NCBI GenBank assembly: GCA_015680685.1
Contig: MNCI01000651.1
Coordinates: forward strand, 1,178,001 to 1,242,000
From: Gnetum montanum
Lineage: Eukaryota; Plantae; Gnetophyta
DNA: 64,000 nt
Reading direction: 5' to 3'
The notes under the pieces were generated by a model. The model made no database searches. It was not told the origin of the DNA and saw nothing but the letters and a program-made list of their open reading frames with translations. This document shows positions 12,076-54,905 of the stretch, one piece after another (position 1 is the first letter of the stretch; each line of letters starts with the position of its first letter). The translations under genes and the position numbers were made by a program.

Positions 12076-12115
12076 AGGAGCTGAAGCTGTCACCCTGCCA
12101 AATCTGCCAGTTATA

Positions 12116-12495: not shown

Positions 12496-12500
12496 TTATA

Positions 12501-27892: not shown

Positions 27893-28005
27893 TTTGTCTT
27901 GTTCAGTGTGCAATGCGCTATTATATTTTTCTTAACCAACCCTAAGGGTTCATTCCAGAGATGTGAATGATTTCCTAAGTTCTACTTAGCACACAAACAA
28001 CTAAG

Positions 28006-28023
28006 TCCCCAGCAATGGTGCCA
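28006..28023 (-). other. PBS (tRNA-Asp type, Athila-like) of element C
   Basis: Minus strand TGGCACCATTGCTGGGGA versus the Athila-type TGGCGCCGTTGCCGGGGA; differences are at CpGs. Confidence 0.85.
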
Positions 28024-28024
28024 A

Positions 28025-29149: not shown

Positions 29150-30859
29150 TAAAAGAAAATAAAAAATCTTATGTATTATGTATTCTAGTTATGAGAATTT
29201 GGAAGGTGCTAGTACCAAGAGTGTTATGTGTTCTAGTTGTTCATCCAACCACCATACCTCAGCTTGCCTTCTTCACAACTCAGATAAAATTTTTTGTCAG
29301 CATTCACAATTTCTAACTCATCCCATATCTTGATTAGCTTAATCTCTACCATGCTGTCAATGTTTCTTAATAGCAACTTAGCACTTAGGTTGATTCTCTA
29401 TTCTTCTTCTACCTAGTGGCTAGTCCTAGGTTGATCAGTGGATACCTAGAGGACTTCTACTCTATGCTGGACTTTGTGCCTCAATCACTTTGAAGAGAAA
29501 GCACTTCATGAAGGAACATGAATTTGAGACTAAAAAAGGGCATCAAAATGGATCATGGGTGGATCATCTACTAAGCAAGGATAAAAATGGAAGAGATTAT
29601 CTCTTATAGCCTCATCACCCATAATGGTAAACCCTCAACATAAATTGTGGTAGCATGTCACTCATCTTCAATATATATAATAGGTTGAAAACCATCATCA
29701 AGAAGAGATTCTTGGATTTGCTGGATGCTAAAACCAGGAGGTCAAGAAACATATCATCTTCTAAATTAGGTACTACCCTAATGATCTCTAGATGTTTTCT
29801 AGGGGCCACTACCATTATATTTTCCTAGTTCACCATTCCTGTTGTTATGGAATGCCTTCCCACATGATTAACTATGACTACCAATTCACAAAGCTTTCAA
29901 ATTAACCCTAGTATAGCATAGACCTTCCTATTATCTCTAGTCATATTCTCAATCTTTCTGAATCAAGGCCTTGTAAAGAAAGAATGAGATGTTAAGGACA
30001 TCTCTCTCATCATTGCCACAACTTTTGCCCTCTCAGCAAAGATACCTGATGGTTGTTTTGTGGGAAAAAAGTTATGTGTGATAATAGTGTACACTACATT
30101 ATGACCTACAGGAAGTTTGAACATCTTCACCTCTACTTTATTCATGTTGAAGACCTTAAATAGGATCTTTGATTTAAGCTTAGGCTTAGTCTTGTGGTTT
30201 TATGAACACCAATTATTCACTAGTTCATTTGGGAATCTTGTGGTCCTAAAGATTACCCATGTAGAAATAGACATAGGAACTCCATCAAAGAAAGTCATAA
30301 CATCATCTACTACAAGGTTTTGGTAGAATATCCATAACTCATGCTAGTACCAACTGAAGGACTAGGTGATACACTCATAGAAGCCTATATATTATAGTGA
30401 CTCATTGAGCTCAAGAGGATTGAGCTTAAGGAATTGATGATAATTCTTCTCTTCAAGGATTTGTCATTGCTGGACATCATGTGGATCCATGCCTTCTTGA
30501 ATATCATATGCTTCTTCATCATCCTCTTTTGCTAGCTCTTTTGGCACTTGACCAATTACCTGTTACCACATATGCATTCAATTGAAGGATTGAGAATGTA
30601 ACTACTTGCCTCCCAATATACTTCTGGATGAAGCTATTTTTAGAGAAATAGTTGTAGATTTTGAATTAGGAGATCTAAGTTTTCCTTCTTCTTCCTAATA
30701 AAGAATTGGTGGTTTGTGCAAGGATCTATATACAGAGGTCTAATATTTTTTAACCTAAGCCCTTCTTGGTTTGTGAAGCTTGAATTGCAATCACCCTAAC
30801 ATTATGAGCTATGAAAATTGTTAAAAATTAAGTGAGTTCCCTAGGCATCATCCTACCAT
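29150..30859 (-). pseudogene. Decayed accessory ORF of relic Y (Athila-type extra ORF)
   Basis: VYTIITHNFFPTKQPSGIFAERAKVV resembles the YxIxxxxxxPxxxxxxI core seen in the other two accessory ORFs. It lies downstream of a TATA + palindrome cluster (31236-31325) and the conserved stem-loop (31788-31840). Confidence 0.55.
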
Positions 30860-32928
30860 TGCAAAAATTGCACATGAAAAAAATGATAAATACAACTTTT
30901 AAAAATACTTAAGAAACATTATCATAACTGTTGAATCATGGAATATATGGATAAGTATAAATAATGTTGAAATATTTAAATAACTACTAGATGCATTAAA
31001 GATATACATGAATTGGTGTCTCTTCCCCATGACTAAGTTACAAGATACTAGGCTTGAACCACAGCTAGAACACCAAGAACACGAAAAAACAAAAAGAGTG
31101 CTTGTAAAAATATCATTAATCCAATCATTGAGGTAAAAAGTTGGCAAAGTTTCTCTTCTTTATGGTCAAATTGGAAGCAAAGGAAAGAAATAATGAAAAA
31201 GGTAAACTACAAAAATATGTTTGGAAGATCCTCCCATTTATAGTAGTGCATTGATGCAGGGAGGGTATGCTAGCATAGGGATATTGATGCCCCTACATTA
31301 ATGCATGGGGTGCATTAGCACATCCTCCCAAACTTGAAAAAAATGCAAAATGTCTCAAAAAAATACTCAAACTTATCTTCCTTCACTTCTAGAGCCTTGT
31401 GCAAGTTTAATAACACATCCAAATTACCATGAATTGACCTAGTAAAGCATCTAAGAACTAAGACAACAAAAGCATTATAAACTTACTTTTAGTGACATCC
31501 ACAATCATGGAAATTGAGATGATTGATTAATGTATGCATTCCCATGAACCAAAAGCTAGAAAAGAGGGGGTTAGAAAAATAGGAAAATTATTAAAGCATC
31601 AAAAATAATGGAATACAATCATAATTAAGGTGAATTGAAGAGAGTTTGTCATAGTTAAATCTTAAAGCACAATAGAGTCAACACTTGCACAAGTGAAAAA
31701 CCAATCAAGTGCCTTATGTAGTGCAACCACCATCATCACTAAGAGCTAAGATTTAATTACTAGCTTAAAATGTCAATCCACCAAGGATTCACAAGTGAAT
31801 CCTTCCCATAGCAAATACTTACCTTTCTTGATCTTGTGAAACTTTTTGATGAGACATCCATGGATTTCTAATAACTAGTGAGACATGAGCATCCGATACA
31901 AGTTTGTCCCCTTGAATGACCAGATCTCATCCTCTACTTCACCTAATCAACTTCTTATCATACATAACAATGGATAAGAAATGGAATGAAAAAAAATGAA
32001 GAATGAATAATGAATAATATAGAGAAAAGGATGAAAGTGCAACATTAAAAAATCGCTAGCCAACCATTCAATTAGCTCATGGAGCACGTGGGCATGTCCT
32101 ACATCTCATGAAAGATATATTACAACATCCTTTTATTACTACTCATCCATATAATGGGTATATACCTCAAAGTCTTCTTTCCAAGCACAAGGTCACACCT
32201 ACCACTTCCAATGTCATATAACCTTGATTATTCTATAGTCCAACCATTGGTTAGATTTGAAAGTTAAGATTCCAATTTAGTTTTCATCCATTTGTACATG
32301 TATACACAATAGGCTACATGAAGATTGCTTTACCAAAAACCTTTCATTGATCCCTTTGGTTGCACTAACCAATCTCATATCTTGATAGAAATCACAATGC
32401 CATGATCAAACAAAGGAAAATTCCATGTTCAAATAGAGTCACGGCTTCGAACAAGGATTATGAGGTTGATTCTTCAAAAAAATGATTTGGAATTTTAGGT
32501 GAAAGAAACATTTGATATCACACAAGTTTACTCAAAGAGAGACTTGTGGATATTTATGGTCATGGGTAAGGATAAGCAAGAGATTTTCTTGGATTATGAT
32601 AGTTTGGAAAATCAAGTAATCTATGCAATGGGTTAATTATGAGGAAAATTTCAATAGGCATTGATTCAAGCACTGATTTGATTTTGATATGAGAAATTAT
32701 AAAATTGGTTTGAGATGGTAAAAATGATAATTTACTTGGACTAATAAGCTTGAAGTTACATTACTCTTTTCATCATGTTTTTTTTTCATTATTATTTTAC
32801 TAATACTTTTTCTATTATTTTTTCTTTTTAATCATAATTTCTTTTTTCATCATTTTTTGCATTTTTCTTTTCATTTTCATCATTTTTTGAAAGAGGATTT
32901 TTTATGGAGCATGAGAATCATGGGAATG

Positions 32929-33715: not shown

Positions 33716-33959
33716 TACTTCCATAATTGACTAAAAACTTATCCTCAAGTTCTAATGAAAAGAGGATAGAGTTCCTTACAAACTTGTGGGGTTACATATA
33801 CTTTGACAATATGACACTTATATACAAATTGATTCTCCTATGAATGTTGCATGGTGGTTTAAGTGGTGTTACAAAATTATCATGTAATACATGATTGACA
33901 CATATGACAAGAACAAGAAAAAACCAACCAAAATTAAGTGTGATATAATTTTCTTCATG

Positions 33960-36743
33960 TTCTAGGTAATGGTGGATCCTACATTGGCTTGTTCCCCTTG
34001 TCATTAAGCTTCTAGAATTGATATATGTTTAGTAGCACTTTGAGTTTTTCTTCTTTTGACCTAAGATCATGTACCATCCAAGTGCATTTAGCAATTTTGG
34101 ATGGTATTGGTACTTCCCATGGACATGGCAGTTGTGGGAATATTTTGTTAGCCTTGACATACCATGTTGCAAATTACATCCTTTCCTCTTCAAAAGCTCT
34201 AGCCACTTTCTTCAATTCTTGATAGTCTATCATTTTTCTAGCTACATTTGCTACTACATCTTTCTGATCTTGATAGCTAGCCTTGACTACTTGTAGTTTA
34301 GAGTTTGCTATGTAAAGTTTTTGTTGGACATGTTTTCTATCAACAAACTCATTTTCATATATTGAATATATAGTAGCCACTTGTTGCTCTAGTTTTGTTC
34401 TTGGTTTGCTAGCTGTCAACATGGCCAAGTTAGCATACTTGAGATTTGCTAACACCATGTATTCTATTAAGTTCTCAATTTGCAAGTCTTTATTCTTTGC
34501 TTCAGCTTGATGAACATGGGTAAGGCTATGCAAGATGGGTTGTTAATTAAGTGTCTATATTGTGATAGAGCTAATTCTAGCTTTGACCACCTAGATCTTC
34601 TTCTCATTGATTTTCTTGTACATGCCCACTTAATCTCTAAAGTGCTTTTTTAGCCTTTCATGTTTCTTGGCCTGATTTTTCCATACGTTGATCTCAATTT
34701 GTAATTTCTATCGCATATCATGGACTTCTTCCATTGATAAGGTTTTATTTTATTGGGCTAATTGTCTTATGTTAAGGTTGAATTTGATGAATTACTCTCT
34801 TAGTTGATGAATACTTTCTTTTAACACATTATTTTTCTTCTCAATGTCTGTCAACCTCATGTTTTTAGCAATAATTTTCTTATTTTCTTCTTCTAATGTA
34901 GTTATAGCCTTGGCATGGGCATATGTCTGTGCATTTGCTATATCATCATTCCACATTACCTTTTTCTTCTCCATCTCCACTTGTATGTATTTGGTTATTA
35001 GTTGGCCAATCTACTTATTTTTGAACCTATTCTAGTTGGTTAGATGCAATGTATCATGCAGGGTCTTATCTTTCAGCTCTTAGTATAGTCAATTCCTCTT
35101 GTAACTTTTGCACTTGACTTTCTGCATGTTGCATTTGAGTTTCTGTCATGAACAGTTTATCTTTTGTTGAAATTAATTTGGATTAGAGTGTAGTGATATC
35201 ATTGGGGATATAAAAAAAGTTTTACATGACTTTTTCTATATATAGTAGTCTCTCCAACATGTCTTCATGCTCTGTGGGGCCATTGATGTTCTAGCTATGG
35301 TTTCTACATTTTTGGTTCCAGTAATATCAAACAGTGGCATAATGGAAGCATTGAAATATTTTTTGATGTGATTTGTTATAATCTCTATTGCTCTTATTGC
35401 ATCCTAATTTTGCATTATCACCACTATGGATCCTTCTCTTGTTTCTAGCATTAGTTGGTAGGAGACAACATTCCTTGAAATCTGTTGTGTCCAAACATCA
35501 TCTTCTCTTTCTTGTAAAGAGACTTGATCGCTAGTGGGTCCTATTGATACAACAAGTCTATTGAGATTATCTTTGAATTTGTACATGCTTGATACTTTCC
35601 TACTTCTCCAATTGCTTGTTTTCACAATCTGCTATAAGTGGCTCATTAAGGATTCATAGTTGGTTATGCTAGTTGAGCACTTTACCTTGGTTTGTCTATT
35701 GCTGGAGTCAACCCACTAGGTCTTAATTGTTTTGTTATTGAGGCTAGAATGTTTTCCATTGATGTAGATTTTGCTATAGCCTTAGGGCTTGTTAGATTTT
35801 AACTTGATCCCTCTTTGGTAATAATGGCTTAGAAATTTTAGCATATGAAGCATTTTGGGATTTTTGATGAATATCATTGGTGTAGCCCAAGATTTCATCC
35901 TACTAACATAATCTTCTAATAAGACAAGGAAATGGTATTGTAGGTTTCCCTATCTTCTTCTTCTCAAATCTTCTTTGTATTTTTAGGAACAACATATGGA
36001 TGATGTTGGCTTGGAATTTCCCCATCAAGATAGTGCTTCCTATGATAGCATAGGTGGAAATTCTATTAAACCTTTTTGTTGGGAATATATGGTATGTTCT
36101 AATCTTGAAATAGATCTTTTTAGGAGTGGAAAATCCGCTATATACCTTTTCAATAGTTGCATAGGTCCTCTGGAGTGGTAAATTCCTTACATTGGTGTTA
36201 GACCTTATATATATTTGAGCTATATCAACTTGAATAATTGGTATGTTTACTATCTTTGCTATTACTTCTACTAAATATAACATTGTGACTTCCTCAACTT
36301 TCATGGTGGCATCATCTTGTTTATTTGTAAAAAATTAATAAAATTTTCCCAAGTACTATTCACCATTTTTTAAAAAGATGAACCATAAAAAAGAGGCTTA
36401 TAGCTACTCATGGACTTTAGCAAGTGAAAATTCCATAAAGGATAAAAAATTCAACTCCATTATGATAGTGGACATGATGGACTTCTCTTGGATTTCTTAT
36501 AAATGTTCATGAGAGAGTTTGAGATGTTGTCCTTGTTTTGGAGCAAATGCAGTAGGCGGTGCATTAGATTTAGCTTATGTAGATTGTCCTATTGTAGGTG
36601 TGGGCTAATATGTGTTGTAGAAATGTACCTCTATCTTTGAAGGAGGAGTTTGTTCTTTACTGCATCCTCTATCTTTCCCTCTAGGTCTCTTCTTAGGTTA
36701 TGATGGTCCTCCTACTTTGAGTCCCTTTCATAGCATTTGCCGT
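33960..36743 (-). pseudogene. Decayed accessory ORF of element D
   Basis: KKRPRG N-terminus; KIYFKIRTYHIFPTKR...IPFPCLIRRLC; coiled-coil; LQIENLIEYMVLANLKYANLAML; CPWEVP. Colinear with 50953-53760. Confidence 0.8.
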
Positions 36744-37303
36744 TATAGAAAATTGTTAATATTACATAAATGTTTCAAAAAAATCCTCTAATGGATCATA
36801 TCCTTTCATCACATTTTGGGTTTTGAAAATCATTATTTATTATCAAATTTATTTTCGAATTGGATTGTAGAGTTCGAAAAGTTTATTATTTAGATAAAAT
36901 CTTTTCTAAGAAAAATCCTTTATTAAATGATTTCTATCAATTAGAAACAAATTTATCTTAAGTAACCTATCATAATCTTCAATTGATTATTTAAGACATA
37001 TTTGAATGATTAATTGTAATGAAATATTAAGTTTATTAGGTTTATGTAAGATGAGAATGTGATTATCTTCTTTTGTTTTTCTTAGCCTTACTTTATTCTT
37101 CTTGGTACAATTTGTAAGAATCTACATGAAATGCTCTTCCCCATGATTTATTTGGTCACTTTGTGAGCAAAATAAAATAAGAATGACTCAAATCACACTT
37201 TTGGTAAGAAAGATATGAAGCTTTGTAGGCTTAAAAGTTAGAAAAATTGCATGTACTTCCTAGGTGTGAAATGATGAAATGAAAATTTTCCTAATGGTCT
37301 ATG

Positions 37304-37397
37304 CATATATATAGATTTTTATAATGGATATAGTATAGATACAATATCGTGGATGTGATATCATAATGGCTAATATATCATATCTATGATATCATTG
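37304..37397 (-). promoter_or_regulatory. Internal promoter of element D: GATATC cluster + TATA
   Basis: ctatatatatg on minus at 37304-37314, preceded by several (G/A)ATATC copies like those in the clan's LTR U3. Confidence 0.55.
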
Positions 37398-39049
37398 TTG
37401 AACTTTTGAAAATTTTTGTGAGTTTTGATAAAAAAAAAAGAGTAAAATGGATAGTATGAAAAGTGTAAAGATGATCTAGAGGGTTCTTGATCATAGATGA
37501 TGCTTAGAATATAGGAATTAGTCATTAAAATTATGTCAAGGAAGGAGTTTAGCTAAGGCAAGTCAATTAAGCTTTTAGGAGATGGTTGATCAAAATTGCT
37601 AAATGTATGAACAAATATGAATATGTAGGAAATAACAATGATTATTTAGGTATTTAGGAGGTACAAATGATGTGGAATTGATCATCAAGTATGAAAGAAA
37701 GGAGTTATACAACTAGGTCCTCTCCAAAGTAGGCTCCTACCCTTAATGCTCTTGTATAACTACATCGAAAAGTATTCATAGGCACTCAAGGAGTTAAATG
37801 TAAATCATACTTGTCTTTCAAACATATATATCAGTATTATCTTAATAAAAAAAACTATATTATATAGAGCCATTAAATTATAATTATATATAATATTGAG
37901 GTGAAATGATAGTAGCAAGGATTATAGAAAATGGGACACGAGATGTCTTACCATAAGCATAATGAATCTTTGTTGTAATGCATGATTAAGATTATCATTA
38001 ACCTTTTCATCCAAGATCCAAACCAAGTCTATATCACTTACTAGTGACATTGCATTGTATCATCCCAAAATTGACAATCACAAAACTATCAAATCTGAAG
38101 GAAATATGATCACTTAGTAATGAAGTATAAGAACACAATTTATTAACACAATTTATTTAAAAGGAGACTTGGCCATTGGATAGAGAAGTGTCTTCAGGCA
38201 TGGGCAACATGTGTTTTTAGCTCCATATTCAATGCGAGTCCAAGAAACCTTGAAATTTCTAAGAAGTTACCTATCTTCAAGCATTAGTAACATGTCTTTC
38301 CAGTGGAACCTCCTTAGAAATTTTTAATATATGTATTAGATTATTTCTAGATCAACCTTACCAAAGGACTATCTTCAGGCATGGGTAACATGTTTTTCCT
38401 ATGACATGTTAAGGCAACATTTATTTTAGAACATACTTCCATTTTTTTTCATTAGAACTTAAGTAAATAATACAACTTAATAGTAGGATACAATTCATAG
38501 TAATAGATTTAAGGAATCTACAAATCCCCTTGATGTCACATCCTTTTCATTTCCACTTGGTTCTTCACTTTTCTATCCAAGCATAATGATCACAAGTTTA
38601 TTTTAGTTTTATTGTTAGAAAAATGTCATTATATGCATGGTAAGAACCTCTTATTATTGAAAATGAGTGGTCTTACTATCTATAGAATCAATCATTTAAT
38701 GATTTGATAACATAGGGTGAAATTCTTATTGTTTCAACTACATTTTGTTTATTTTATTACACTTTATTAGAAAGATCAAAAAAAAAAAAAACTATGTACA
38801 TGGAAAATGATAAAAATCATAGAAGAAAGAGAAATGGGTAAGAATGGAAAACCATATAAAGAATTTGAAAGATTTTAAAGAATGAAAAATGATAAGAAAT
38901 GTGAAAAGTTTAAAAGAATAGGAAAGAAATCAAAGAATGCAAAAAATTGGTAAGGAATGTGAAAAGTATATCAAGAATATAAATGAAAGGTTTGGTTCCT
39001 AAGTATAAAAATTGACACCCCCATGACTATTGTCAAAAGTAGTAATTTA

Positions 39050-41640: not shown

Positions 41641-42546
41641 TGATGAAGCGCTAAATAGTCGATGCGTTGACTAGGCTATGTATACGGGGCCCCATATACA
41701 TGGCCATATCGATGTAGCCCTGTTGACACATCCGTCTATGCATTGATGTGGCCCCGTTTATGCGAAGCTTGTTTTAGCTTATAAATAAGTGGGCTTATGC
41801 CACACTTGGGTACCTTTTTGACAATTGTAGCGAAGCTCTTGCAGTTCATTTCTGCAAGAGTTAGAATATTTTCTAAGTGCCTGGAGTAGGTGTAAGAAAG
41901 GTGTCTAGCTCTTTATTCGAGCACTAATGTACTTGAGCCCATTGGTGTGAATGGAAATAAAGATGAGCTTTTCAAGCATTCCTTGCAACAATTGGACTTA
42001 GTTATTTGATGCATTTAATAGTTTAATATTTCTATGCTTTGATAATTCCTTAAGTTTTTGTTGTTATTACCTTAATTTCCATCACTCTCTTATAGTTTGT
42101 GAAGACCATAAGTACGACCATCTCGAACATAAACCCAACACTTGGCAACCCAGCGACGCATAATGTCTAGAAACCCACTAGTGGCTAGGGGATGCTCAAG
42201 ATGTGTATGGAAGATGGGATCGGATACTTATGCTAGGAAAAGTTAAGATATAGATTAGGATAACTATAGATTGCATAATATTCCATTCCTTACTTTCTAT
42301 TTCAAGAATTAGCCGCTAGAAGATAAAGTGAAAAAGCCATAAAAATCATTTGTCTCAATCTCACTTAACCATTGCAATCAAAACATCACAAGTGAGGTTG
42401 GAAAGACAATGATCATTTTAACCTAAGGTTTTTCTAGTTAGGCTCTAGTGTATGAAAAGTGCTTACAGTCTATGGAATTCGACCAAGTCATGTGTGAACA
42501 CCTGTGATTTGCATGGTTGGGTATAAGGGTACCTAGCCACTCATCA
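41641..42546 (+). repeat. 5' LTR of element B
   Basis: TG...CA termini; U3 with GTATAC/GTCGAC-type palindromes; TATAAAT near 41780. Confidence 0.92.
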
Positions 42547-42547
42547 T

Positions 42548-42565
42548 TGGTGCCGTTTCCAGGCA
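42548..42565 (+). other. PBS (tRNA-Asp type) of element B
   Basis: TGGTGCCGTTTCCAGG, 1 nt after the LTR end. Confidence 0.8.
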
Positions 42566-42704
42566 CTGTTAGTCTTACATGTAACCTTAGGAAAATTATC
42601 ATTCATGTCATGGGAACGGACCTAGGATAGTAAAATCTATGCACACTAGGCGGCCTAAGTAAAAAAGTAAGGTACACCAATTAGTGGATTATCTAACATC
42701 CAAC

Positions 42705-45700
42705 ATGTCTTCTTCTCACAGGCAAGATGGATCCAACCCACCAATGCCACAAGAATGTCAGGTGGTATACACGCATCTAGATGAATATGTCCCAAACTTC
42801 AACTTTATCCTACATTAGGATGAGCATTTGCACTGGCGGGACATGGAAGGCAACATCATACTACTGCCTGACCGATCAACTCCTGGAATGTTGTTTCAGA
42901 ATCTTGCCTGACTCGGCATTCAGGACTATGATGTGGAGTACGTCATGGAGGATCATGACTATTGGGGCTATCGTCCCACTGAGGCCCAACATGTACGAGA
43001 CCAATAGCAAGAAGAATGGTATGAACACATGAAGGGGCATTAGTTCAGTAACCCCTTATTCTTGTAAGGGTTGTAGGACGATGGGGAACCTATATTTTAT
43101 GATTCCCATTTGGCCAAACTTTCAGTGGGGCATCAGATCATTCAGTCCATCATTCAAAACAAGAAATCAAGTGATTGGGACCCCTAGGAGGATGGAGGAT
43201 CACGTAGGAGAGGTCATGGAATAAGCAGAGATGGGCATGAAGATTGGGACTATCATTAAAGTAGAGGGGGAGATCAACGTCGAGGTGGTGGTGATTCTTC
43301 TCCCTCTTCTCCATCCTTTCGCTCCCCTCTACCTTCATCCAGTTCCAACTCAGATTGGGACTACGGTAGAAAGGAGCGAGGTGATGGTGGTCGTAGGGAC
43401 CAAAGGGAATGACGTGAGGGAGTGCGTGAACAATGACACGAGCCTCACCATCAAGAAAGGAGATGTAGCTAGAATCGTCATAGAAATCATGGCCTTCAGT
43501 AGGACTATGACTTGGATGAACTATTGTTGGCTACTCGAAGCATGCTCCATATCATAGAGGTAGTTCAAATACCCAATAAGGACTTGAAGGATAGCCAGAT
43601 CAAGCGCATTGACATGAAAAATATTCCTAGATTTGAAGGGGGATATAATTGTGATATGCAAACTCACCTACAAGCATTTCATGATGCTTGCACCCTGCAG
43701 AACATCAATAATGATTGGCAAAAGTTGAAGCTATTTCCTCGCACACTCATCAAAGAAGCAAAAAGCTAGTATCGATCTTTGGAATCGGAATCAATTAGGA
43801 GATGAAGTACAATGCTGGAGATCTTCAATGACAAGTATCAAACCTACTCTAGAGTGGCGAACCTGAGATGCCAAATCCAAGGGTGGAAGTAAGGTATTCA
43901 TAAACCCTTAGATGCAACCATGAGCAGATACTACTCACTGTTGCATTAATTCCCTGATCATGGCTATTCTCAGTGGGCACAACTTTGCCATATCATTGAT
44001 GGGCTCTGCTTTGAAACTAGAAAGACCCTTGGTGTGTACACGTAAGGATAGCTATCAGAACTAAGAGCCCATCAACTATAGCACCTAATTGAGCAAGTGG
44101 ATAAAGAAGAGAGGGAACTTAGAAAGAAGGAGAGTGTAGAGGAGTTTAATTGGGATCCCTCCATTAGAAAGAGGAAGGTCCAATTTTGTGAAGATGAGGA
44201 GGAATCACCATTGGATGCAGCAGTGAACTAAAAAACCTTTCCCCTACAAAAATTTTCCTCTAAAATATTGCTAACGTGGATAAGATGTGGGACTCTTTGG
44301 ACGAAAAATTTCAAAGTGTTCTGAAAATTGCAGAGGAGTCCAAAGAGCAAGGTAATGATCGTGATCGGCATAGGAAGAAGAAAGCTGAACGTGCCTACCA
44401 TAAAGGTAAGGGCAAAGTTGCTATAGCAGAATAGGTTACGGACTTTGATACAGAGGAAGATGATGAATGTAACATATGCCAATACAAACATCCTAATGGG
44501 TGTTATCTTGTGGTGTCACATCTATAAGAGTCTAGGGTGTATGCATTGAATCCTCGTTTGGAAAAGAGGCAAACTCCCCAAAGGTTGTCTTACCCACAAG
44601 GCAACCCCAGGCAGTTCCACCAGTAGTAAGGATATTATCCAAGTGGAATGCCACCACAACCTTATGAATACTTTCAGCAATGGCAGCACCCACAAGCATG
44701 GGAAATGCCACCTCCAAGGTAGCAGTACCCTTATCGACATCCAAATCCCTATGGGTACTACGTTCAGCAACTAGTCTCCCTGTGGGACTCTTCCAGTCAC
44801 GCAACCTTTCAGAATTACTACCATCCCCATAATATTTCTGACCATAGTCTTCATCACCTAGGGGAGGCCAACATCTCTACTATCCTTTATCACCTTCTCC
44901 TGAAGGCCCTACTTAGCAACACCCCACTCAGTTACCACCTGCTTCACCTATGTAGGGGGAGATACCACCACAACCACAACAATGCAATGCTACGAGGGCT
45001 GTTAACCTACAATTGGCTTCTCAACCGAATGGACAGGAAGCCAAGCCATGGAAATGTCCCTTTTCTCGGCCTAATAACCTAAGCATACCCTCACATGCAC
45101 TTGTGGCTAGTGCCTCTAAACCTCAAAATGCCTCCACTGTTATACCCTTCGAGTAGCCTTCAAACTAAATGCCCTCCAACGTACAAACAATCATGCTCAC
45201 ACACGCCATGACCAACTGGATAAAATTAGATCATCTTCCTTGAAAATTGACTGATCTGGGAAGCCCCCTCATCTATCTTCAGGTGGCAAGGAATGAGCCA
45301 TGTAAAGCTCTTCTAGATTTGGGGTTGAGAGTCAACTTAATTTTACATGACATGTACAAGACTTGGAACTTGCCTCCATTAAAGAAGAGCAACATTTGGC
45401 TTGAGCTGGCAGACCAATCCATTACTGTTCCCTTAGGATTGGTAGAGGACATTGTGACCACCATTTGTGGGTGGTCCTATCTTGCTGATTTCCTTGTCAT
45501 TCATGTTGAGAATTACAAGGAAAACTTTCCAATCATAATGGGAAGAGCTTGGTTGAGCATGGTGGATGCAAGATTGAGACTCTAAGATCTTTTTCTTAAA
45601 ATTTCAAAGGAAAATACTTTTTGAAAGACTGAGAAGAAGTGCATTCCATGCATCGCGTACAGTGACTCCAAGTGCAACTATGTGCAGCAGCTATGGTCCG

Positions 45701-48700
45701 CTTAGCGGACATCTATCCAAGCATGCAGTTGGTGTATTGAGGAATCGCAAGTTCAAAAATGCTTGTACATAGCAGCCACAAATCAAGAAGGCACCCAGTG
45801 GCTAACTGCTGATCCTACTAGCAGAACTTTGTGCATCGAACCATCTGAGGGGCTTGTATGTGCCTATGTAGAAAGCATGGATGATTTGGAAGAGGTTCAT
45901 CAACAAGTATCCACTATTGATGACCTTGATGATTGGGGAAAGTTGCAAATCCATGAAAGTTTTAAACTAGAGCCCTTGGAACTCAAACCCTTACTAGCCC
46001 ACTTAGAATATGCATTTTTGCAGAATGGGAAACCAGTGATTATCAGTGCCACCCTTGCTTCTGAATAGAAGAAGAAGTTGCTGAAGGTGGTGAACAAATG
46101 GGAAGCTACTTTTGCATGGTCATATTCTAAATTAACAGGAGTTGATCCTAGGGTTTGCCAACATCAAATTTATATTGACCCCTCCATGAAGCCACGACGA
46201 TAACCACAAAGGTAATTGAACCCCAAACTAAAGTAAGTTATCAAAGATGAAATTGAGTAGTTGCTGAAAGCAGGGTTCATCTATTCCATTGCTGATAGCG
46301 AATGGGTCAGCCCACTCATTATTCTACCAAAGAAGGATGGAAAATGGAGGGTTTGTATAGATTTTCAATTGCTCAACATGGCTACCTTCAAAGATCACTT
46401 CCCATTCCCATTCATGGACTAGATGTTGGATACCATTACGGGGCATCGTTATTATAGCTTTTTGGATGGCTATAGAGGCTATAACCAAATCCAAATCGTG
46501 CCAAAAGACCAGGCCAAGATAACCTTCACAAGTTCCTAGGGGAAATTTTTCATACAAAAAGATGTCCTTTGGCCTGTGTAATGCACCTGCCACTTTCCAA
46601 CGCCTTGTCCTCAACATCTTCTAGCAAAAAATTGGAAATGGGGTAGAAGTCTTCATGGATGAATTCTCTACCTATGAAGCCATGTTTGGTCAAGCCTTGG
46701 ATAGCCTTGAGCAAGTTTTGAAAGGATGTGTGGAAACTAATCTATGGCTCAACTGGCAGAAAAGCCACTTAATGATCCAAGAGGGCATTATGCTAGGGCA
46801 CCGTATTTTACAAACAAGGATTAACATGGATCCTGAAAAAATCAAGGTCATCCAAGGAATTACCAGGTAGCCAAGCACTGTAAAAGATGTTCAGTTATTC
46901 CTTGGCCACATTGGTTACTATCGACGCTTCATTGAAAATTTCTCGAAGATCGCCAAGCCATTGGTGGAACTCATGAAGAAAGATGCTTTATTTGTCTGGA
47001 CCAAGGAATGTGAATCTTCATTCAAACACTTAAATAGAAACTCGTAGAGGCCCTAGTTCTATGAGCACCTGATTGGTCCAGACCCTTCCACATCATGACG
47101 GATGCATGCAATTATGTATTGGGAGTCGTGTTCACATATTGGGATATTAAAAAACGCTCATACTATATTCACTATGCAAGTCGTAGCATTGTGGGTGGTC
47201 AACTTAACTACACCACCATTGAAAAAGAGTTGATGGTGGTGGTGTTCGCCTTGGAAAAATTTTGACACTATGTGCTCAGGTACAAGGTGTTTGTGCATAC
47301 TGACCATAGTTCCATCTGGTTCCTAATGAACAAACCAATGATGAGCCCCCGTATCATATGGTGGCTGGTGATTCTTCAAGAGTTTGACCTCACTATGGTA
47401 GATCAGAATGGAATTGAGAATGTGGCCACTGACCACTTGTCTTGGTTGCGATGGAATAATGCAAAAGAGGAGGAGCCACTCTCTGACCAATTCCTAGATG
47501 AAATCCTCTTCGTGGGAGCGGTCGATACGCAGGTGCCCAAAGAATAACCTTGGTCCAACCATATCCTCACCTATCTCACAACTCAGGAATTGCCAAAGGA
47601 GTGGGACCACCAACAAAAAGAATAGTTTTTCCATAAGGCCAAGTGCTTCATGGAAATAAATGGTCACCTTTACAAGGTGTGTGCAGATGGCCTAATTAGA
47701 TGGTGTGTCCTTGATGATGATACACTACGCATCCTCTAAAATGCTCACGAGGGCCCTTTTGGGGGCCACTATGTTAGATGACGCATGACCATTAAGATCC
47801 TACTTGTAGGATATTACTAGCCTACAATTTTCAAGGATGCAAAATGGTTTGCCCACTCCTATGAACGATGCCAGAGAGACAGTGGGATGACTGCACGAAT
47901 GGGGGAACCTTAATAGTGGATCCAACTGTTGGAGTCCTTCAACATTTGGGGCATCGAGTTCATGGGTCCAATCACATCCCTGTCTAACGGAAAGGGATAC
48001 ATCATCGTGGATATGGGCTACTGCACAAAGTGGGTAGAGGCGGCAGCCGTTATCAACTGTTCCTTAAACACTATCGCACAATTTGTCCAACCACAAATCA
48101 TCAATAGGTTTGAAGTGCCACGTGCACTCATCTCAAACAATGGAATGCATTTCATAGGTGTCACTTTTCGTAAACTCATGCAACACTTGGGGGTTACCCA
48201 TAAGTTTACAACACCTTATCACCCCCAAGCCAATGGGCAGGCCGAAGTTACCAATAGGGAGATCACCAAAATCCTTACTCGAACCATAAATAAATATAGG
48301 AGGGATTGGAGCACCAAAATTAATGATGCCCTCTGGGCCTACTTCTCTACTTGGAAACTTCCTATAGGTTACTCTCCCTATGAGTTAGTGTACAATAAGC
48401 TATTGAAACTTCCAATTCAAGCAAAACTCTGGACACTATCTACAACCTGTGACTTGGGTCTTGACCTACCACTAGCACAACATGAATGACTTATCAACCT
48501 AACTATGCTAAATGAGAATCAATTGGTGGCCCTGTCATCAAATGAGATACACAAGGCCTACAATAAAAAATTTCATGATCTTAGGATTCGGAAGGTAACA
48601 TTTAGATGTGGAGATAAGGTCCTTTATTGGAACCCCACACACATACCACAACCAACCAAGTTTCAAACACTATGGGGGGGACCTTACATTATCTCCGAAA

Positions 48701-48900
48701 CCTTTTCATCTGGGGCCTTACTTATACAAAAACCTGAGGATCCCATGAGAACACAGTTGGTCAATAGGCAATAATTAAAACTTTTCTATGATCCCCACTA
48801 AACTAGTCCTACTGCATCATCATCACAAGGACAGGATCCTTCCATTTTTTTGCATCTCCTCCTTCCAGCCTAGTCGTGGGGGAGATCGTTGTCCATGCTA
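42705..48900 (+). pseudogene. gag-pol of element B (many stops)
   Basis: MSSSH start shared with element C; gag IPRFEGGY...KLKLFPRTL; PR ALLDLG; RT KDHFPFPF, VFMDEFS; RH; IN TPYHPQANGQAEVTNREI. Confidence 0.93.
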
Positions 48901-50118
48901 ATCCATTCTACTAAGATCCCCACTATTTTTGGAACTTTTTGTTTTTCACTTTTTTGTTTTTCAACATTGTTCATACGTTTGCCAATTCTTACTAAGTTCT
49001 TCATTCTTTAATTACTTTTCCATTTCTTTGTTGCTTACTTATCTGTGTTTGTTTCATTTCCAGTTGGTTGCTAATACATCATCTTATTTTCATCAGGTGT
49101 ATGGTGCGGATGGTTTTTGTTGCGATGGGTCACGTGAAAAGGTCCACCTATTTTATCTCACTCTTGCCCTCACATTATTGTTCTTGGAATTTACGTCTAC
49201 TTTCATCTCATAAAATCAACAGTGAGTCGACATCATCCACCTATTCATCCACTCCATGGTTTTCCTCCCTTTGGAAACATGCAAACCCCTTTACTTAAGA
49301 ATATTTTAATTAATGTGTGACTTGTGTAGTTTCCAGACTCGGGGATGATCCAATGGTTTGAATCGGGTGTGATTTCAAGGGGAATGCAAAATTCATCGTC
49401 CTCTTCTATCCCTTGAGTTGTAGAAGTGCCTTTACAGATTTCTTACCACTCCAAGTTCTTTTCTACAAGGAATCTCGTTAGCAATTTGACCTTGAATGGT
49501 GTGGTCCTCATCGCAAAAACACAAAAAAAACGTGAGGATTCAAAGCACACCACTTGGTCGAATGCATGCAACCAAGCATGGGTCTTTGCATGGTGTGGTT
49601 CCCACAAAATCAAACTAAAAACAAAAATAAAGTCCTAACTATGTGGGAATTCAAAGCACACCCCTTAGACTGCCTCTCATGGGCCACAAGCACTAGTTAT
49701 GGGACTCGCTTCATCCCCTCTAACTTAGTCTCGATGCACTTCCTTCCTCTCATGTCTGTTAGAGTGGTGGTTCTCTGTGGGTGCATTCTTATACACTTGG
49801 GGGGTGGACAAGTCTTCATATGTTGCTGCAATGTCATTGTATGTGGTTGGTTTTGGGTTTGAACTCGGGAAAGGTCCTACTGAGTCACTTAACCACAACT
49901 TCACATGGGGTTTCATGTGATCGATAATTGGAATTTCAATTCTCTCTTCTCTCTCATCATCCATTTCTCTCCATGACTCACCTCACTTCCTATCTTATGT
50001 TTTGATAGTTTGTCATGATTTCCATGAACTCCTCATGCTTCAGCAAGTTCTCATGGATGGGAGTATTAACTTGCAATCATCATTTCTTGACCCTAGGACC
50101 CACGAACTCTAGTGTTGA

Positions 50119-50177
50119 GGATATGCAAGGGCTATTGCAGCTACCGCTTGCTATGGGGAGGACCTACTTGCATATCC
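50119..50177 (+). other. Conserved stem-loop (11-bp stem, 37-nt loop) in the post-pol spacer
   Basis: GGATATGCAAG / CTTGCATATCC. Homologues with different stem sequences at 18154-18208, 20518-20574, 31788-31840 and 37703-37761. Confidence 0.75.
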
Positions 50178-50429
50178 CTAGTCCCATTTGTTAGTCTTTC
50201 ATCCTCTTGATTTTGTTGGTGGATTGTTTTCATGATACCCATCGCTCGACTTCTTCTCCGCAGAGTTCTTTTTCACCACATTCTTCTACTTTTGACTCCC
50301 TTTTTTGTTCACTTACCTTCCTCTTTCTCTTGGCCATGTTCCTGGTCTCTCCAACTCTACAACCACCCCAATTTGGCATTTTAAATCCATTTTTGGGCTT
50401 TTATCAGGCTAGTTAATGCTGGTCAATGG

Positions 50430-50952
50430 GTGCAACCCCTTGCGTATACGTGGCCTTGTATACGTAGCCCCCCTGCATATACACGACCCCATCAACGTAG
50501 CCATAAACCTCTATATATACCCCCATCATGTGTTACATTTTCATTAATTTTACACACAAATTGGGTAGAGATTTTTCATTTTTCTACCTCGCCTCTTCTT
50601 CCAAGCACTTACATTGTCTACCGCGCATCCTAATCAACCTATCCTTTCCTTCTTTAGAAATTGAAGGTATGCTCTCAATCGTGGGGGGTGAGGTCTATTC
50701 AAATTAATTAATTACTTACAATTACAATCAATAAATACTTAACACCTCTTAAGGGAAGAAACAAAAACAACAGTTTAAACTCCAACTCATGCCTATTGTT
50801 TTTTGGTTCTAACCGCCCATCAATTACTACTCCAAGAAGTTTAATGGGATGCACGTGATAGCACCATAACTTAGTCAAAATGAGAAGGTGTATGAGGGCC
50901 ATTTTGAGCAATTTTTTATACAATATTAATTAGTAGTTATGTTTTATTGTAG
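50430..50952 (+). promoter_or_regulatory. Internal promoter + leader intron of element B accessory ORF
   Basis: LTR-like GTATAC/GGCC cluster at 50441-50503, CTATATATA at 50511, donor AAG|GTATGC at 50667, acceptor ttttattgtAG|ATG at 50952. Confidence 0.62.
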
Positions 50953-53760
50953 ATGGCACTGAAACCAAGGCATCCAAGGGGAGAAGGACCATCACAACCA
51001 AGGGATAAGCGGCGAAAAATGAGAAGAGGATGAGGTGTGCAACACCTAGAGCATGCAGAGGACACCCATGCAATTGGCCCCATCCATGAAGGACTTGATG
51101 TTGAATCTGTTCATCATATTCCTAAAGAGGATATCCTTAGTGAACAATCGCAAGGGGATGAGACTCCGGTGATAGTGCCACGGCTTGAGGTCACCTTGAC
51201 CCAGGTATGTCTTAATGCTATCAAGCCAAGGGAAGTGTAACAAATGGTCCTAGAAGAGCTGAAATTTGGACCATTTCTTAAGAATGCACCAGAAGAGGTG
51301 ATGCTCCAATTACAAAACTCCCCTATGTGGCCAATAATCACATCCATTGGTGAATGGTACTTAGGAGAGACTTACCTCTTTTGGACAAATCGATAGCTGG
51401 GGTCCAGAGTAAGAATCAAGCTCTGGGGTTACCTGAGACTAGAGTCAATATGGCGAAGATCCCTAAGTAGGCAGATCCCAAGGTAAAAAGGGAGTGGATT
51501 AGGTGGTGTTATGGGATGGATCGTAAAGAGTTTGGCACTCAGACCACCGTGGAGAGGGTGTATTTAAAAATTATGTCTTACCACTTGAACCCAATGATGA
51601 GACCCAAAAAAATCATTGCCTTCTCCACTCATGCATGTGCTGCTCTAAGTGAAAAATTTCCAATGAGCCTTCCATAATTGTTGTTCCTGGAGATTGAGAA
51701 AAGGTTCGTTGAAAGCGAACGTGGAAAATAGGCTTTACCCTTTCCTTGCTTAATCAAAAAATTATGCAAACGAGCAGGGATAGCACGATATGTCAATGAT
51801 ACACTTCGGCACGCCCTGATTGCCTTGTGATGGGAAATGATGAAAGATAGGACTTTGGCCACCACACAAACTAAGAAAGAGCAGCAACCGCCTCCACCAC
51901 TTATGCAAAAAATGAGGTCAAGTTCACAAACAATCATAGAAGATATACATGAAATCTAGCAATCACTCTTGAGCCAACAAGAGCAACCTGGAGGGATCGG
52001 TGGAGGAGAAGAGCCTTCGGTTTATTGCCCTGCAATGAGCCATTTGGAGCAAGTGGCTCGATCAATAAGTCTATTAGAAAGAGCAAGGCTGATGTTCTCT
52101 ATTGCCTAAACACAAGTACCTACAAGAATTAATCCTAGTGTCCAAGAAGTAACGGTATCCATCCAACAGTTGTTTCCTGAAATTTTAAGGAATGCTGCTA
52201 CTTTTTTGGTACGCTTGGAGGATGGAGAGGGGGTGACAGTCCTAGTGATGCAGCACCAAGGATAGGAGATTACAGCCGAAGTGGTTGCTAATACAATTGC
52301 TACAGCCCTCAATGCACCAGTGGCACCTATACTAGATGTACATGGACTCAAAGATGTACAAGCGTTTGCTAGGACTTCACGTAGGAGGATCGATGTAGCC
52401 CAACATGAAGAACTATTGGATCGACTGATGGAAACTAGGCAACCACTTCTGGATGTTTTTGATGTTTCAGATAGCATCACTACAACCCAATCGGAGCTAC
52501 TTTCAACAAGGTTTAAGAGCCTCATCTTGGAGGGGAAACTCAAAGTTGCTCAAGCCAATTGTCAATGCTTAGCAAAACAAAAGTTACCTAATTAAGGGCC
52601 CACCTTGTCGATCTAACTCTTTTCAACCGTGAACTCACTAGAGATGAATCTTTTCAATGGCTTCAAGTCAAACTCCAAATAGTTGAGGATGAGCATGAGT
52701 CGATGACTTTTGATAAGTCCTTGGCAGACGTTCATGCATATTACCTAAACAAGGACCTGATAGAGGTTCGCCAGAAGAATATAAGGCTAACCACGGAAGT
52801 TCATTGCCTGCGCAATGTTGGTGATGAAAAGCAACACATGAAAAGCTTTATCCACCAATAGCAGGAAGAGCTAGCTAGCGTAAATGTTGATGTGAGGGGT
52901 TGGCCACTAAAAATCAAAATCTGTCCATGGAGGAGGTTTGTACCTTGTGACAGAAATCAGCCATCAAAATCGCCACTTTGAAAAGTAAAGCCCTTAAGTT
53001 TGAAAAAGTTAAGAATCATTACAAGGACCAAGTGGGTTACAGAAGGAAGTGAATGAAAAACATATTCAAGTCATTAAGGCTAAATTGAACCAAGTGCTCT
53101 AGCAGCTCTAAGAAGAAGGTGAGGTATGGCAACCTATCTTTGATGGGTTGAATGCATACAACCAGGCTAAAATCCATCTCAAGGAACTACAGATTGAAGA
53201 AATGACAGAGTACATGGAGTTGGCCAACCTTCGCTATGCAAACTTGGCTATGCTAATAGTTGGGAGACCGTGGTTTGACCTAGAAAAGAAAGTGACCACC
53301 TCCTATTCTTTATACAATGGCGAGTTCCATGCACATAAAGCAACAAAAAAAATTGAAAACAACAAATGCAGAACTCGAGGTCCTTCGCACGTATTTTAAG
53401 GGACAATGTGTGGTTTGGTTTTTCAATTTGAACAAAAATAGTTCGTGGCTTGGTTTGTCAATTTGAAAGAACTCTTCCCTGCGCGTCCATGCCCTTGGGA
53501 GGTTCCAGTCCCAGCACACATTAGTGAAGCCACTTAGATAGTGAATGATCCTAGAAGTAAGGAAGAAAAAATGAGGACTCTCTTGGAGGCATTTCGGTTG
53601 CCTCCAGAAGTTGCAGTTGCTATGAGACAACAATCATCCGTGCCATCATCACCACATGTGCCAGAGGCTGGTGAAGGTTTGTCAAAACCACTGGCACCAG
53701 GGATGATGTAATCTTCTCTAGCAATTTTTGCATCTTTCAGCACAACAGAGAATCCAAGAT
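50953..53760 (+). pseudogene. Accessory ORF of element B (about 930 codons, decayed): basic N-terminus, plant-transposon-protein-like core, long coiled-coil
   Basis: MALKPRHPRG...RRKMRRG; VYLKIMSYHLNP...ALPFPCLIKKLCKRAGI; LQIEEMTEYMELANLRYANLAML; CPWEVP. Confidence 0.82.
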
Positions 53761-53954
53761 TGTTGGGGTGTTCAGTTTTATCTCTAAATCCCACCATTTT
53801 GTAATTTTTCCTTCTCTATACACTCAAGCACTTGGTGCATTAGTAAAATTGGTGTTATGTCATGTGTGTTGTGTCATGTGTGTTGTAATAAGAAGTCCAT
53901 ACTTCCAAATTGTATAGGAACTCAAGGATGAGTTTTTACTCAGTCATGGGGGTA

Positions 53955-54905
53955 TGATGAAGCACTAAATAGTCGATGCGTCGACTAGGCCATGTATATG
54001 GGGCCTTGTATACATGGCCATGTCNTGGAAGCCCATTTATTTATAGGCTAAAACAGGCTTCGTGTAAACGGGGCCACGTCGACGCATGGATGGATGCGTT
54101 GATGGAGCCGCATTGACATGGCCATGTATACAAGGCCCCATATACATGGCCTAGTCGACGCATCGACTATTTAGTGCTTCATCATACCCCCATGACTGAG
54201 TAAAAACTCATCCTTGAGTTCCTATACAATTTGGAAGTATGGACTTCTTATTACAACACACATGACACAACACACATGACATAACACCAATTTTACTAAT
54301 GCACCAAGTGCTTGAGTGTATAGAGAAGGAAAAATTACAAAATGGTGGGATTTAGAGATAAAACTGAACACCCCAACAATCTTGGATTCTCTGTTGTGCT
54401 GAAAGATGCAAAAATTGCTAGAGAAGATTACATCATCCCTGGTGCCAGTGGTTTTGACAAACCTTCACCAGCCTCTGGCACATGTGGTGATGATGGCACG
54501 GATGATTGTTGTCTCATAGCNGTGTCTGGTAACCCAATAGTGGCTAGGGGATACTCAGGATGTGCATGGAAGATGGGATCAGATACTTATGCTAGGAAAA
54601 GCTAAGATATAGATTAGAATAACTGCAAATTACATAATATTCCATTCCTTACTTTCTATTTCAAGAATTAGCCACTAGAAGATAAAGTGAAAAAGCCATA
54701 AAAATCATTTGCCTCAATCTCACTTAACCATCGCAATCAGAACATCACATGTGAGGTTGGGAAGACAACGACCGTTCTAACCCAAGGTTTTTCTGGTTAG
54801 GGTATGGTGTATGCAAAGTGCTTATAGTCTACAAAATTTAACCCAGTCACGTGTGAACGCCCATGATTTCCATGGTTGGGCGTAGGGGTACCTAGCCGCT
54901 CATTA
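53955..54905 (+). repeat. 3' LTR of element B (mis-assembled internally)
   Basis: The start matches 41641, and 54522-54905 matches about 42163-42546. The interior is interrupted by N at 54025 and 54521. Confidence 0.85.
54026..54520 (-). other. Inverted contig between two gap Ns (assembly artefact)
   Basis: 54115-54520 is an apparently exact reverse complement of 53619-54024; the segment is bounded by single Ns. Confidence 0.85.

Follow-up and report, generated by a model that had tools for sequence, protein, structure and literature searches.

The role of the extra 3' gene of Athila retrotransposons has been an open question for over twenty years. The locus studied here lies in a window of 64,000 nucleotides from Gnetum montanum (contig MNCI01000651.1, positions 1,178,001 to 1,242,000 of the forward strand) and raises this question anew: what is the relation between such a gene and the block of palindromes in front of it? 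Judged from its sequence, the stretch under study (49000-53954, plus strand; the 3' part of an element termed E1) appears to hold the accessory gene at the 3' end of an Athila-like element in decay, placed behind a block that repeats the LTR palindromes of its own family. The architecture of this unit is real, and the unit has very probably been conserved by selection.

Anatomy and class of the element

E1 (41641-54905, plus strand; element D of the initial annotation) is a decayed, full-length Athila-like LTR retrotransposon, surrounded by a 5-bp target duplication with one mismatch. Its 5' LTR of 906 bp (41641..42546) runs from TGATGA to CTCATCA, with GTATAC-type palindromes in the head and a TATA at 41780. 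The LTR is followed by a primer binding site (PBS) of the Athila tRNA-Asp/Asn type (42548..42560, 11 of the 13 letters of the published core) and by a decayed gag-pol (43150..48801) with a protease-like motif, reverse transcriptase (RT), RNase H, and integrase, the stop of the latter being at 48801. The gag and protease gave no Pfam match; their placement rests on position, on motif, and on resemblance to element E3. A word resembling a polypurine tract (PPT) was found immediately 3' of the integrase stop (48874..48882); across the window it has 13 matches versus 1.37 expected. The terminal polypurine tract (53944..53954) precedes the 3' LTR (53955..54905), which is split by a flipped contig (54026-54520) lying between two N. 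This segment contains a reverse copy of 53619-54024 without mismatch over 406 bases, and the apparent 900-bp inverted repeat at 53619-54520 was rejected as an assembly artefact. The two LTRs exhibited identities of 87.8% over 384 bp and 82.7% over 156 bp. As they are 12-17% apart and all genes are broken, this copy is dead.

The order of the pol domains (RT, RNase H, integrase) fits the Athila lineage (Ty3/gypsy, OTA), as does the tRNA-Asp/Asn type of PBS behind an LTR ending in ATCA. An additional RNase H is a mark of Tat. Neither this domain nor a chromodomain gave a Pfam match before RT, between RNase H and integrase, or after integrase, in a search whose sensitivity is lowered by decay. 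The element is classed here as 'Athila-like', an assignment that rests on domain order, PBS, and the absent extra RNase H and chromodomain.

The palindrome block, the extra gene, and the neighbouring elements

The candidate internal promoter of E1 (50440..50520, plus strand) consists of two GTATAC palindromes and a TATA run. It ranked best of 452 internal windows of E1 compared to the element's own LTR head, with z-scores of 5.6 and 7.4 toward the two E1 LTR heads (500 dinucleotide shuffles) and at most 1.1 toward seven other LTR heads. The LTR-mimic block that the initial annotation had placed as a promoter before the 3' ORF was recovered. The corresponding block of E2 (37295..37410, minus strand) is of the GATATC type and matched five GATATC-type LTR heads (z 3.9-8.5; two others 2.3 and 1.7), whereas the z-scores toward both E1 heads were below 0. 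Downstream of the TATA the match between block and LTR vanishes (z -0.7 and -0.9). Because it ends there, the block is not a nested LTR, and a nested solo LTR was rejected as its source.

The position of the block is homologous among E1, E2, and E4. Over RT-RH-INT, the amino acid identity between E1 and E3 is 66%, compared to 55% and 58% versus E2. As the pol of E1 is nearer to that of E3, yet the E3 LTR is of the GATATC type like that of E2, the E1 motif is likely derived, which suggests a joint change of motif in the LTR and the internal block. In contigs of a related organism, the summed depth, which is not a copy number, reached 98,709 on the ORF and 374-481 over the palindromes, and four of the six joints listed skip within 50385-50505. 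The thin coverage of the palindromes and the skipping joints point to fast turnover at the block.

The extra sense ORF of E1 (50953..53711, plus strand) comprises about 920 codons and is broken by stops and several frameshifts. As had been annotated, it encodes a basic, helical (coiled-coil) protein behind the LTR-mimic block: ten of the first 30 residues are K or R, and the C-terminal half is predicted to be helical or coiled-coil, the helices being modeled at low confidence from the homologous E2 piece. A Transposase_32-like region lies at about 51220-51800. The matches to PF20167 (E 4.8e-6 and 1.2e-4) remained below the Pfam cut-off of 45 bits, with 27 bits for E1 and 22.4 bits for E2, and span the C-terminal half of the profile only. 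The ORFs of E1 and E2 are homologous (tblastx E 1.6e-60), and their identity by codon position (53/66/40% over 419 codons) is conservation of the coding type. Their C-terminal region is conserved as well and belongs to no Pfam family. Unlike env-like proteins in the strict sense, the E1 protein exhibited no transmembrane helix, with a peak 19-residue hydropathy of 1.22 over all six E1 pieces; higher peaks were reached by E5 (1.96) and by a single E2 piece in heavy decay (1.90). No match to DUF1985, DUF287, PMD, Transposase_28, or ATHILA was obtained up to E 10 in six ORF pieces. AlphaFold models reached a pLDDT of 36.6 for the Transposase_32-like domain and of 51.1 for the C-terminal piece (E2 homologue; long helices of low confidence), and no solved structure matched the extra protein. 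Homologue searches yielded no usable sequence among 4875, 61, and 1210 candidates, and one 134-amino-acid fragment with the same domain was found among 1.84 billion representatives.

Four further elements, all on the minus strand, were compared. E2 (32940-41635, continuing at 54906) carries E1 inserted in its RT; its extra ORF (34018..36730), the homologue of that in E1, is heavily decayed. E3 (18965-28860) has a gag-pol, and neither a palindrome block nor a long extra ORF was found in it. In E4 (about 15080-18964), a candidate promoter is present (17750..17850) and the ORF behind it is deleted; this block matched the LTR head at 62560-62695 with z 8.7, compared to 1.3 for its own decayed head. 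E5 (about 29300-32930) retains a block and an ORF piece (29780..31345). Its palindrome-plus-TATA block (31228-31345) represents a third motif type, with no LTR in view for comparison. The ORF piece is distant with the same domain (protein z 10.3 versus the E1 piece and 2.8 versus E2) and gave no Pfam match. The initial annotation had described a recurring order of pol, repeat array, structured RNA, promoter, intron, protein, and PPT. All of these parts except the array were identified in E1, the promoter and the intron as candidates. The recurrence held in part: of the five elements, only E1 and E2 combine the block with a long ORF, the post-pol tandem array is confined to E2 (38823-38979), and the hairpin described below is carried by two of the five. 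It is plausible that E3 and E4 are dependent derivatives; the successful Athila-lineage family Diaspora, too, is known to have lost the extra ORF (PMC1142308).

Proposed feedback by the extra protein and its alternatives

The block is probably a real internal promoter. Separate transcripts of the extra gene would start from it, and the candidate intron would be spliced from them. The Transposase_32-like domain may bind DNA and the helical half may oligomerise. The protein, likely nuclear, would bind the palindromes, acting on its own gene first and then on the LTR, which would make a self-activating loop. A PF20167 ORF of sunflower Athila is described as predicted nuclear (PMC11728184); an association of MAIL2 with a palindromic motif and a structural resemblance of the MAIL1 PMD domain to DUF1985 are reported (10.1101/2024.09.27.615353). 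At the sequence level, E1 has related elements in its U3 and in front of the internal TATA, as expected from the logic of internal promoter and Tas in foamy virus.

We regard feedback of the extra protein on the palindromes, as activation or anti-silencing, as a tentative reading that falls somewhat short of an even chance. The apparently coordinated change of motif is the footprint expected of a self-encoded, sequence-specific activator; a shared host factor or U3 copying would leave the same. Counted against feedback are the number of protein-motif pairs (n=2 in the 64-kb window, within which copies were compared) and the mismatch of the E4 block with its own decayed LTR head. The lack of matches to DUF1985, DUF287, PMD, Transposase_28, and ATHILA, the PF20167 scores below the cut-off, the poor protein models, and the RNA data described below also weigh on this side, as do the accounts of Sirevirus palindromes and of the spliced Arabidopsis ORF2 message. 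The wider proposal is more doubtful. It holds that Athila-like elements encode their own activator or anti-silencing factor, a Transposase_32 protein that is made from the internal promoter and would read the CpG palindromes of its family in promoter and LTR; that protein, promoter, and LTR would diverge as lock and key; and that ORF-less derivatives would borrow the protein in trans.

The second promoter may instead be real and stay matched to the LTR through a shared host factor, siRNA escape, or U3 copying at reverse transcription, with the protein serving another job such as chromatin tethering, particle assembly or movement, or suppression of RNA silencing. This explanation is somewhat less likely than feedback. 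It accounts for the motif match without new biochemistry, an equal layout is reported for Sireviruses (PMC2829016, PMC4728375), and the palindromes are retained in the ORF-less E3 and in solo LTRs. The PPT-like word beside each block might be a priming site near template switches. For the Arabidopsis Athila domain, coiled-coil pentamers with many host contacts are described as predicted (PMC13547354). However, several motif types in one genome exceed the needs of a single host factor, and the match is loose, consisting of short motifs with no long identity, unlike recent copying.

A quite unlikely alternative dispenses with the internal promoter: the gene would be the usual Athila env-like gene, its message spliced from LTR-driven RNA into an acceptor in front of the ATG, and the block would be either a relic or an enhancer. 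The intron candidate (50667..50952, plus strand; 286 nt, 67% AT) has GT at 50667 and AG at 50951-52, the latter directly abutting the ATG at 50953. Expression by splicing is reported for Athila ORF2 and Bagy2 (PMC7197481, PMC7264820), the Arabidopsis ORF2 message being described as spliced out of the full-length RNA (PMC7197481). The RNA data constitute a weak test: over 50300-51500, 115 reads from three runs were obtained, all from diverged relatives and none 99% alike. Neither a start site nor a splice joint was seen among them, reads were present inside the candidate intron, and four RNA runs gave no splice joint over 20 kb. Against LTR-driven splicing stands the arrangement itself, as palindromes, TATA, an ATG-free first exon, and a donor 286 nt upstream form a complete small promoter-intron unit. 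The intact canonical pair of donor and acceptor was found in E1 only, with a PPT-like word at 50679 inside the intron candidate. E3, and in decayed form E4, likewise show a donor-like site adjoining such a word, which again speaks against this alternative.

The initial annotation had further suggested Rev/RRE-type handling of genomic RNA by binding of the protein to the stem-loop. On this reading, the protein would bind a bulged hairpin and thereby export or package unspliced RNA. Two copies of this hairpin lie in E1 (49497..49553 and 49591..49664, plus strand), the first with 6-bp and 8-bp stems, a 6-nt bulge, and an A-rich loop, and one in E3 (21054..21112, minus strand). In favor of a Rev-like protein, all three copies share the same fold, with 41 of 42 cells paired and two changes on both sides; the N-terminus of the protein is basic, and the hairpin, which precedes the internal block, would be present in the long RNA only. 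Covariation was not significant (52 of 500 shuffles), though, the fold z was only -1.4 to -2.3, and no Rfam family was found (one chance-level match, mir-70, with 24.6 bits versus 90). The pattern had no match in metagenome contigs. Moreover, E2 has the ORF without the hairpin and E3 the hairpin without the ORF; the two do not travel together, which argues against a Rev/RRE pair. This claim was thereby weakened, and we consider it improbable. The likely role of the hairpin is that of a cis signal by which Gag or host proteins, and not the extra protein, recognise the genomic RNA for packaging, export, or translation. A second non-coding motif (50080..50195, plus strand) is common to E1, E2, E3, and E4 and has no consistent fold (z -0.2, 0.1, -0.35, and -1.3). 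A unit repeated in E2, E3, and E4 folded no better than shuffles, and sliding folds revealed no broad structured RNA domain, with windows at z -2.5 or lower numbering 3/57 in E1, 0/48 in E3, 1/60 in E2, 4/47 in E4, and 0/35 in pol.

A chance or assembly origin of the anatomy is largely refuted and very improbable: the blocks were initially chosen by eye, the 3' LTR artefact is real, and one control window reached z 3.7 against one LTR head, but in unbiased scans the blocks ranked first of 452 and of 313 windows, the E1 match persists using the 5' LTR alone, and parts of the stretch were found in contigs from several organisms.

Relation to known systems and meaning

The closest relatives of the gene are the 3' sense extra ORFs of Athila (PF20167 / PF03078; sunflower Athila 14 aORF, Arabidopsis Athila ORF2), with which it shares the lineage marks, the position between pol and PPT, a PF20167-like domain, the basic N-terminus, the acceptor before the ORF, and the coiled coil. 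It is longer (about 920 codons versus 487 in sunflower Athila), and the conserved C-terminal region is additional. An LTR-matched palindrome/TATA block before the extra ORF was not found described in the Athila literature searched.

Sireviruses (SIRE, Ty1/copia) are reported to have extra PPT copies as well, and CpG palindromes that vary between families and stand both in front of the LTR TATA and ahead of the env-like gene; an internal promoter has been proposed, and these accounts treat the palindromes as cis-regulatory DNA and as a hotspot of siRNAs and show no binder encoded by the element (PMC2829016, PMC4728375). They belong to another superfamily, whereas E1, with its integrase after RNase H, is not in Ty1/copia order, and their extra PPTs cluster at the 3' LTR, whereas those of E1 are spread (after the integrase, beside the donor, and terminal). 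The ORFs of maize Grande gene23 and Retand TRP28 are a close precedent, but are antisense, belong to the Tat/Retand lineage, and carry a TRP28 domain; no LTR-matched promoter is described for them in the sources used.

VANC and the VANDAL transposons are described with family-specific short motifs of fast turnover in non-coding DNA, an accessory protein with conserved and variable parts, and co-evolution of VANC and its target motifs (PMC5735166). However, VANDALs are MuDR DNA transposons and E1 is an LTR retrotransposon; the VANC targets are tandem arrays of non-palindromic motifs of 8-9 bases and those of E1 would be palindromes, and DUF1985 and DUF287 were not detected in the six ORF pieces. 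The closest analogue among working systems appears to be the pair of internal promoter and Tas in foamy virus, and not Rev. The logic is that of the self-activating loop proposed above, as the foamy virus product is reported to bind both internal promoter and U3 (PMC3185757). Foamy virus is an animal retrovirus with no protein similarity found, and the loop shown there is proposed from sequence for E1.

The pairing of block and gene was seen in two different families here and likely allows the gene to be switched on separately. The family-matched block makes the old question precise, with the prediction that the protein of each family favors the palindrome of that family. Should this hold, a loop of the foamy virus or VANC kind would provide a function for the long-unexplained 'env-like' gene of Athila, and a major genome-expanding lineage of plants would, like VANDAL transposons, have control over its silencing. 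Otherwise, Athila-like (gypsy) elements and Sireviruses (copia) would still have converged on twin palindromic promoters and extra purine tracts.

Host element and surroundings

In this plant DNA, nested LTR retrotransposons surround E1 (element D of the initial annotation), a decayed element at 41641–54905 (+). Its 5' LTR (41641–42546, +) is followed by a primer site that agrees with the Athila core in 11 of 13 letters (10.64898/2026.03.20.713144, the ATHILAfinder preprint), and E1 is flanked by a 5-bp target duplication with a single mismatch. Pfam matches revealed the gypsy order of RT, RNase H, and integrase. Pfam gave no trace in E1 of either an additional RNase H or a chromodomain; by the criteria of Neumann et al. 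(PMC6317226), this domain content points to Athila rather than Tat. All E1 genes are broken, and LTR–LTR identity is 87.8% in a 384-bp and 82.7% in a 156-bp stretch. A flipped contig between two single N (54026–54520) provides the head of the 3' LTR in reverse orientation. Since this piece contains a mismatch-free reverse copy of 406 bases, the 900-bp inverted repeat at 53619–54520 was rejected as biology and regarded as an assembly artefact.

Elsewhere in the window, a TIR-NB-ARC-LRR resistance-type gene (about 8148–14269) carries ~ten 24-aa leucine-rich repeats, seen as a 72-bp array (11390–12065). The element at 180–3833, in which a short gag-like interior separates two 950-bp LTRs of 82% identity, is likely non-autonomous and of another lineage; its primer site is likely of the tRNA-Met type. 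A perfect 87-bp duplication (6732–6908) is possibly an assembly overlap. Decayed stretches at 58980–59240 and 60400–61100 resemble, by eye, a non-LTR (RTE-type) reverse transcriptase.

Palindrome blocks and LTR heads

Upstream of the extra ORF, the sense accessory gene between pol and the terminal PPT, E1 contains two GTATAC palindromes followed by a TATA run (50440–50520, +). The neighboring element E2 carries a GATATC-type block at 37295–37410 (−). In unbiased scans against the respective LTR head (the LTR start with palindromes and TATA), these blocks topped 452 internal windows in E1 and 313 in E2.

The internal blocks of E1, E2, and the further elements E4 and E5 were compared with nine LTR heads (z, score against shuffles). 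The E1 block matched the two E1 heads only (z 5.6 and 7.4; remaining heads at most 1.1). The E2 block matched five GATATC-type heads (z 3.9–8.5) and two others weakly (2.3 and 1.7), with no match to the E1 heads. The E4 block matched solely the LTR at 62560 (z 8.7), whose family is closest to the E4 LTR tail, and not E4's own decayed head (z 1.3). None of the nine heads was matched by the block of E5, whose own LTR lies outside the view. In this fragment (29300–32930, −), palindromes of a third type (ATGCAT, GCTAGC) occur along with a TATA and a distant accessory-domain piece. Two GATATC-type LTRs without own interior were located at 15781–16590 in the E4 LTR and at 55677–56520 in the E2 pol region (both −).

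Block–LTR likeness stops at the TATA, and the blocks of E1, E2, and E4 occupy homologous positions. Because E1 and E3 (another element of the window) are the most similar in pol (66% amino acid identity; other pairs 55% and 58%) while the E3 LTR carries the E2 motif, the E1 motif is likely derived, its LTR and block having switched jointly, as judged from three elements with no outgroup. In contigs of a related organism, the ORF was covered far deeper than the palindromes, where deletions occur, in line with fast turnover.

The LTR produces genomic RNA; from a second promoter of the same palindromes, a short message would arise that is spliced and encodes a nuclear, oligomeric protein. A family-specific factor is the simplest single reason for a motif that a family's two promoters share and that differs from one family to another within this genome. 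The obvious candidate for it is the gene that follows the second promoter. We tentatively propose that the protein feeds back on its family's palindromes. That a host factor or copying explains the shared motif, the protein having another job, is somewhat less probable.

Extra gene, candidate intron, and hairpin

The E1 extra ORF (ATG 50953 to 53711, +) spans ~920 codons and is interrupted by numerous stops and several frameshifts. Its E2 homologue lies at 36730–34018 (−; tblastx E 1.6e-60, six collinear blocks). Identities at codon positions 1, 2, and 3 were 53, 66, and 40% (419 aligned codons), at the sequence level the pattern of a conserved protein. Transposase_32 (PF20167) matches were below the cut-off (E 4.8e-6 in E1, 1.2e-4 in E2), and these ORF pieces had no other Pfam domain up to E 10. 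PF20167 may share the plant mobile domain/DUF1985 fold, given similar short motifs. E1–E2 identity amounted to 44–53% in the C-terminal half, 31–33% in the PF20167-like part, and 30% in the middle block. The more distant E5 piece reached z 10.3 with one E1 piece and 3.4 and 2.8 with the other pieces compared; it had no Pfam match. The basic, coiled-coil protein of the initial annotation agrees with 10 K/R among the first 30 residues in E1; the C-terminal half was modelled as long helices at low confidence only. Hydropathy revealed no membrane-like stretch in the E1 protein; values of 1.9–2.0 were reached in one decayed E2 piece and in E5. As a sunflower Athila ORF with PF20167 (487 aa, nuclear signal predicted) is published (PMC11728184), the E1 gene belongs, by sequence, to a known kind of gene or is closely allied to it. 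The eORF tables of PMC6317226 may include this protein group.

The proposed intron was found in E1 as a candidate from GT 50667 to the AG before ATG 50953 (+; 286 nt, 67% AT), preceded by an ATG-free first exon (64% AT); splice sites in other elements are decayed or partial. Three RNA runs yielded 78, 1, and 36 reads over 50300–51500 (0 of 115 at 99% identity), with neither a splice joint nor a start site for the LTR-mimic promoter and with some reads inside the supposed intron. The joint was likewise absent in four RNA runs across 20 kb. This is a weak test, since roughly 2% or 26% of each run was sampled and the reads derive from diverged relatives. Expression of the extra ORF by splicing from LTR RNA alone is improbable; the Athila ORF2 message is described as a spliced product of full-length RNA (PMC7197481), and passages of PMC3276544 contained nothing on this point.

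The PPT-like word TCRTGGGGR occurs 13 times in the window (1.37 expected): at 48874, 50679, and 53944 (+), at 39026, 37146, 31032, 20344, 19771, and 17592 (−), once inside the artefact, and three times elsewhere. Sites lie after the integrase stop, at the terminal PPT, and beside a donor-like site ~170–200 nt past the internal TATA; the extra words are likely additional plus-strand priming sites. E3 retains the donor-like site and the word (19770–20500, −), but its final 730 bp contain neither a palindrome block nor a long ORF, although a short, unrelated reading frame may come next. A 30–45 bp unit (38161–38407, 20981–21024, 18640–18757; −) is present in three copies in E2, two in E4, and a single one in E3, immediately past the hairpin; it was not found in E1 and has no consistent fold.

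Two E1 copies and one E3 copy of the hairpin share a 6-bp stem, 6-nt bulge, 8-bp stem, and A-rich loop (41 of 42 cells pair, two pairs altered on both sides; 52 of 500 shuffles do equally). Searching the window with a model built on these copies yielded no others (next best hit at E 0.13); thus E2 has the ORF without the hairpin, and E3 the hairpin without the ORF. The recurring architecture of the initial annotation is partly confirmed: long ORF and LTR-matched block occur together in E1 and E2. Many RNA reads of relatives carry the hairpin (depth 331 in run X13, where ORF and hairpin reads favour opposite strands). It is likely a cis signal rather than the partner of the extra-ORF protein. 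These distributions argue against the Rev/RRE-like pairing of the initial annotation, and a Rev-like protein is improbable; the interpretation given there is partly supported overall.

Relation to known systems

The foamy virus internal promoter with Tas follows the same two-promoter logic (PMC3185757), and VANC with its motifs parallels a family-specific factor (PMC5735166). Plant mobile domain proteins, structurally resembling DUF1985, associate with motifs, one palindromic (10.1101/2024.09.27.615353; PMC13547354). Sireviruses carry family-variable palindromes ahead of the LTR TATA and again ahead of the env-like gene, where an internal promoter was proposed (PMC2829016, PMC4728375). Grande gene23, whose product is nuclear, is driven by a promoter of its own, and extra ORFs were previously suggested to act like Tat or Rev (PMC7264820, PMC11963269); a VANC-like role of retrotransposon ORFs was posed as a question for Athila (PMC12844716), and Diaspora has lost the extra ORF (PMC1142308).

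In the main texts of the literature searched, no description of an LTR-matched internal promoter in Athila was found. In Arabidopsis, Athila elements give 3' transcripts with an internal start; the promoter itself would accordingly be less new. The feedback hypothesis is already in the literature; the family-matched block gives a sharp test of it.
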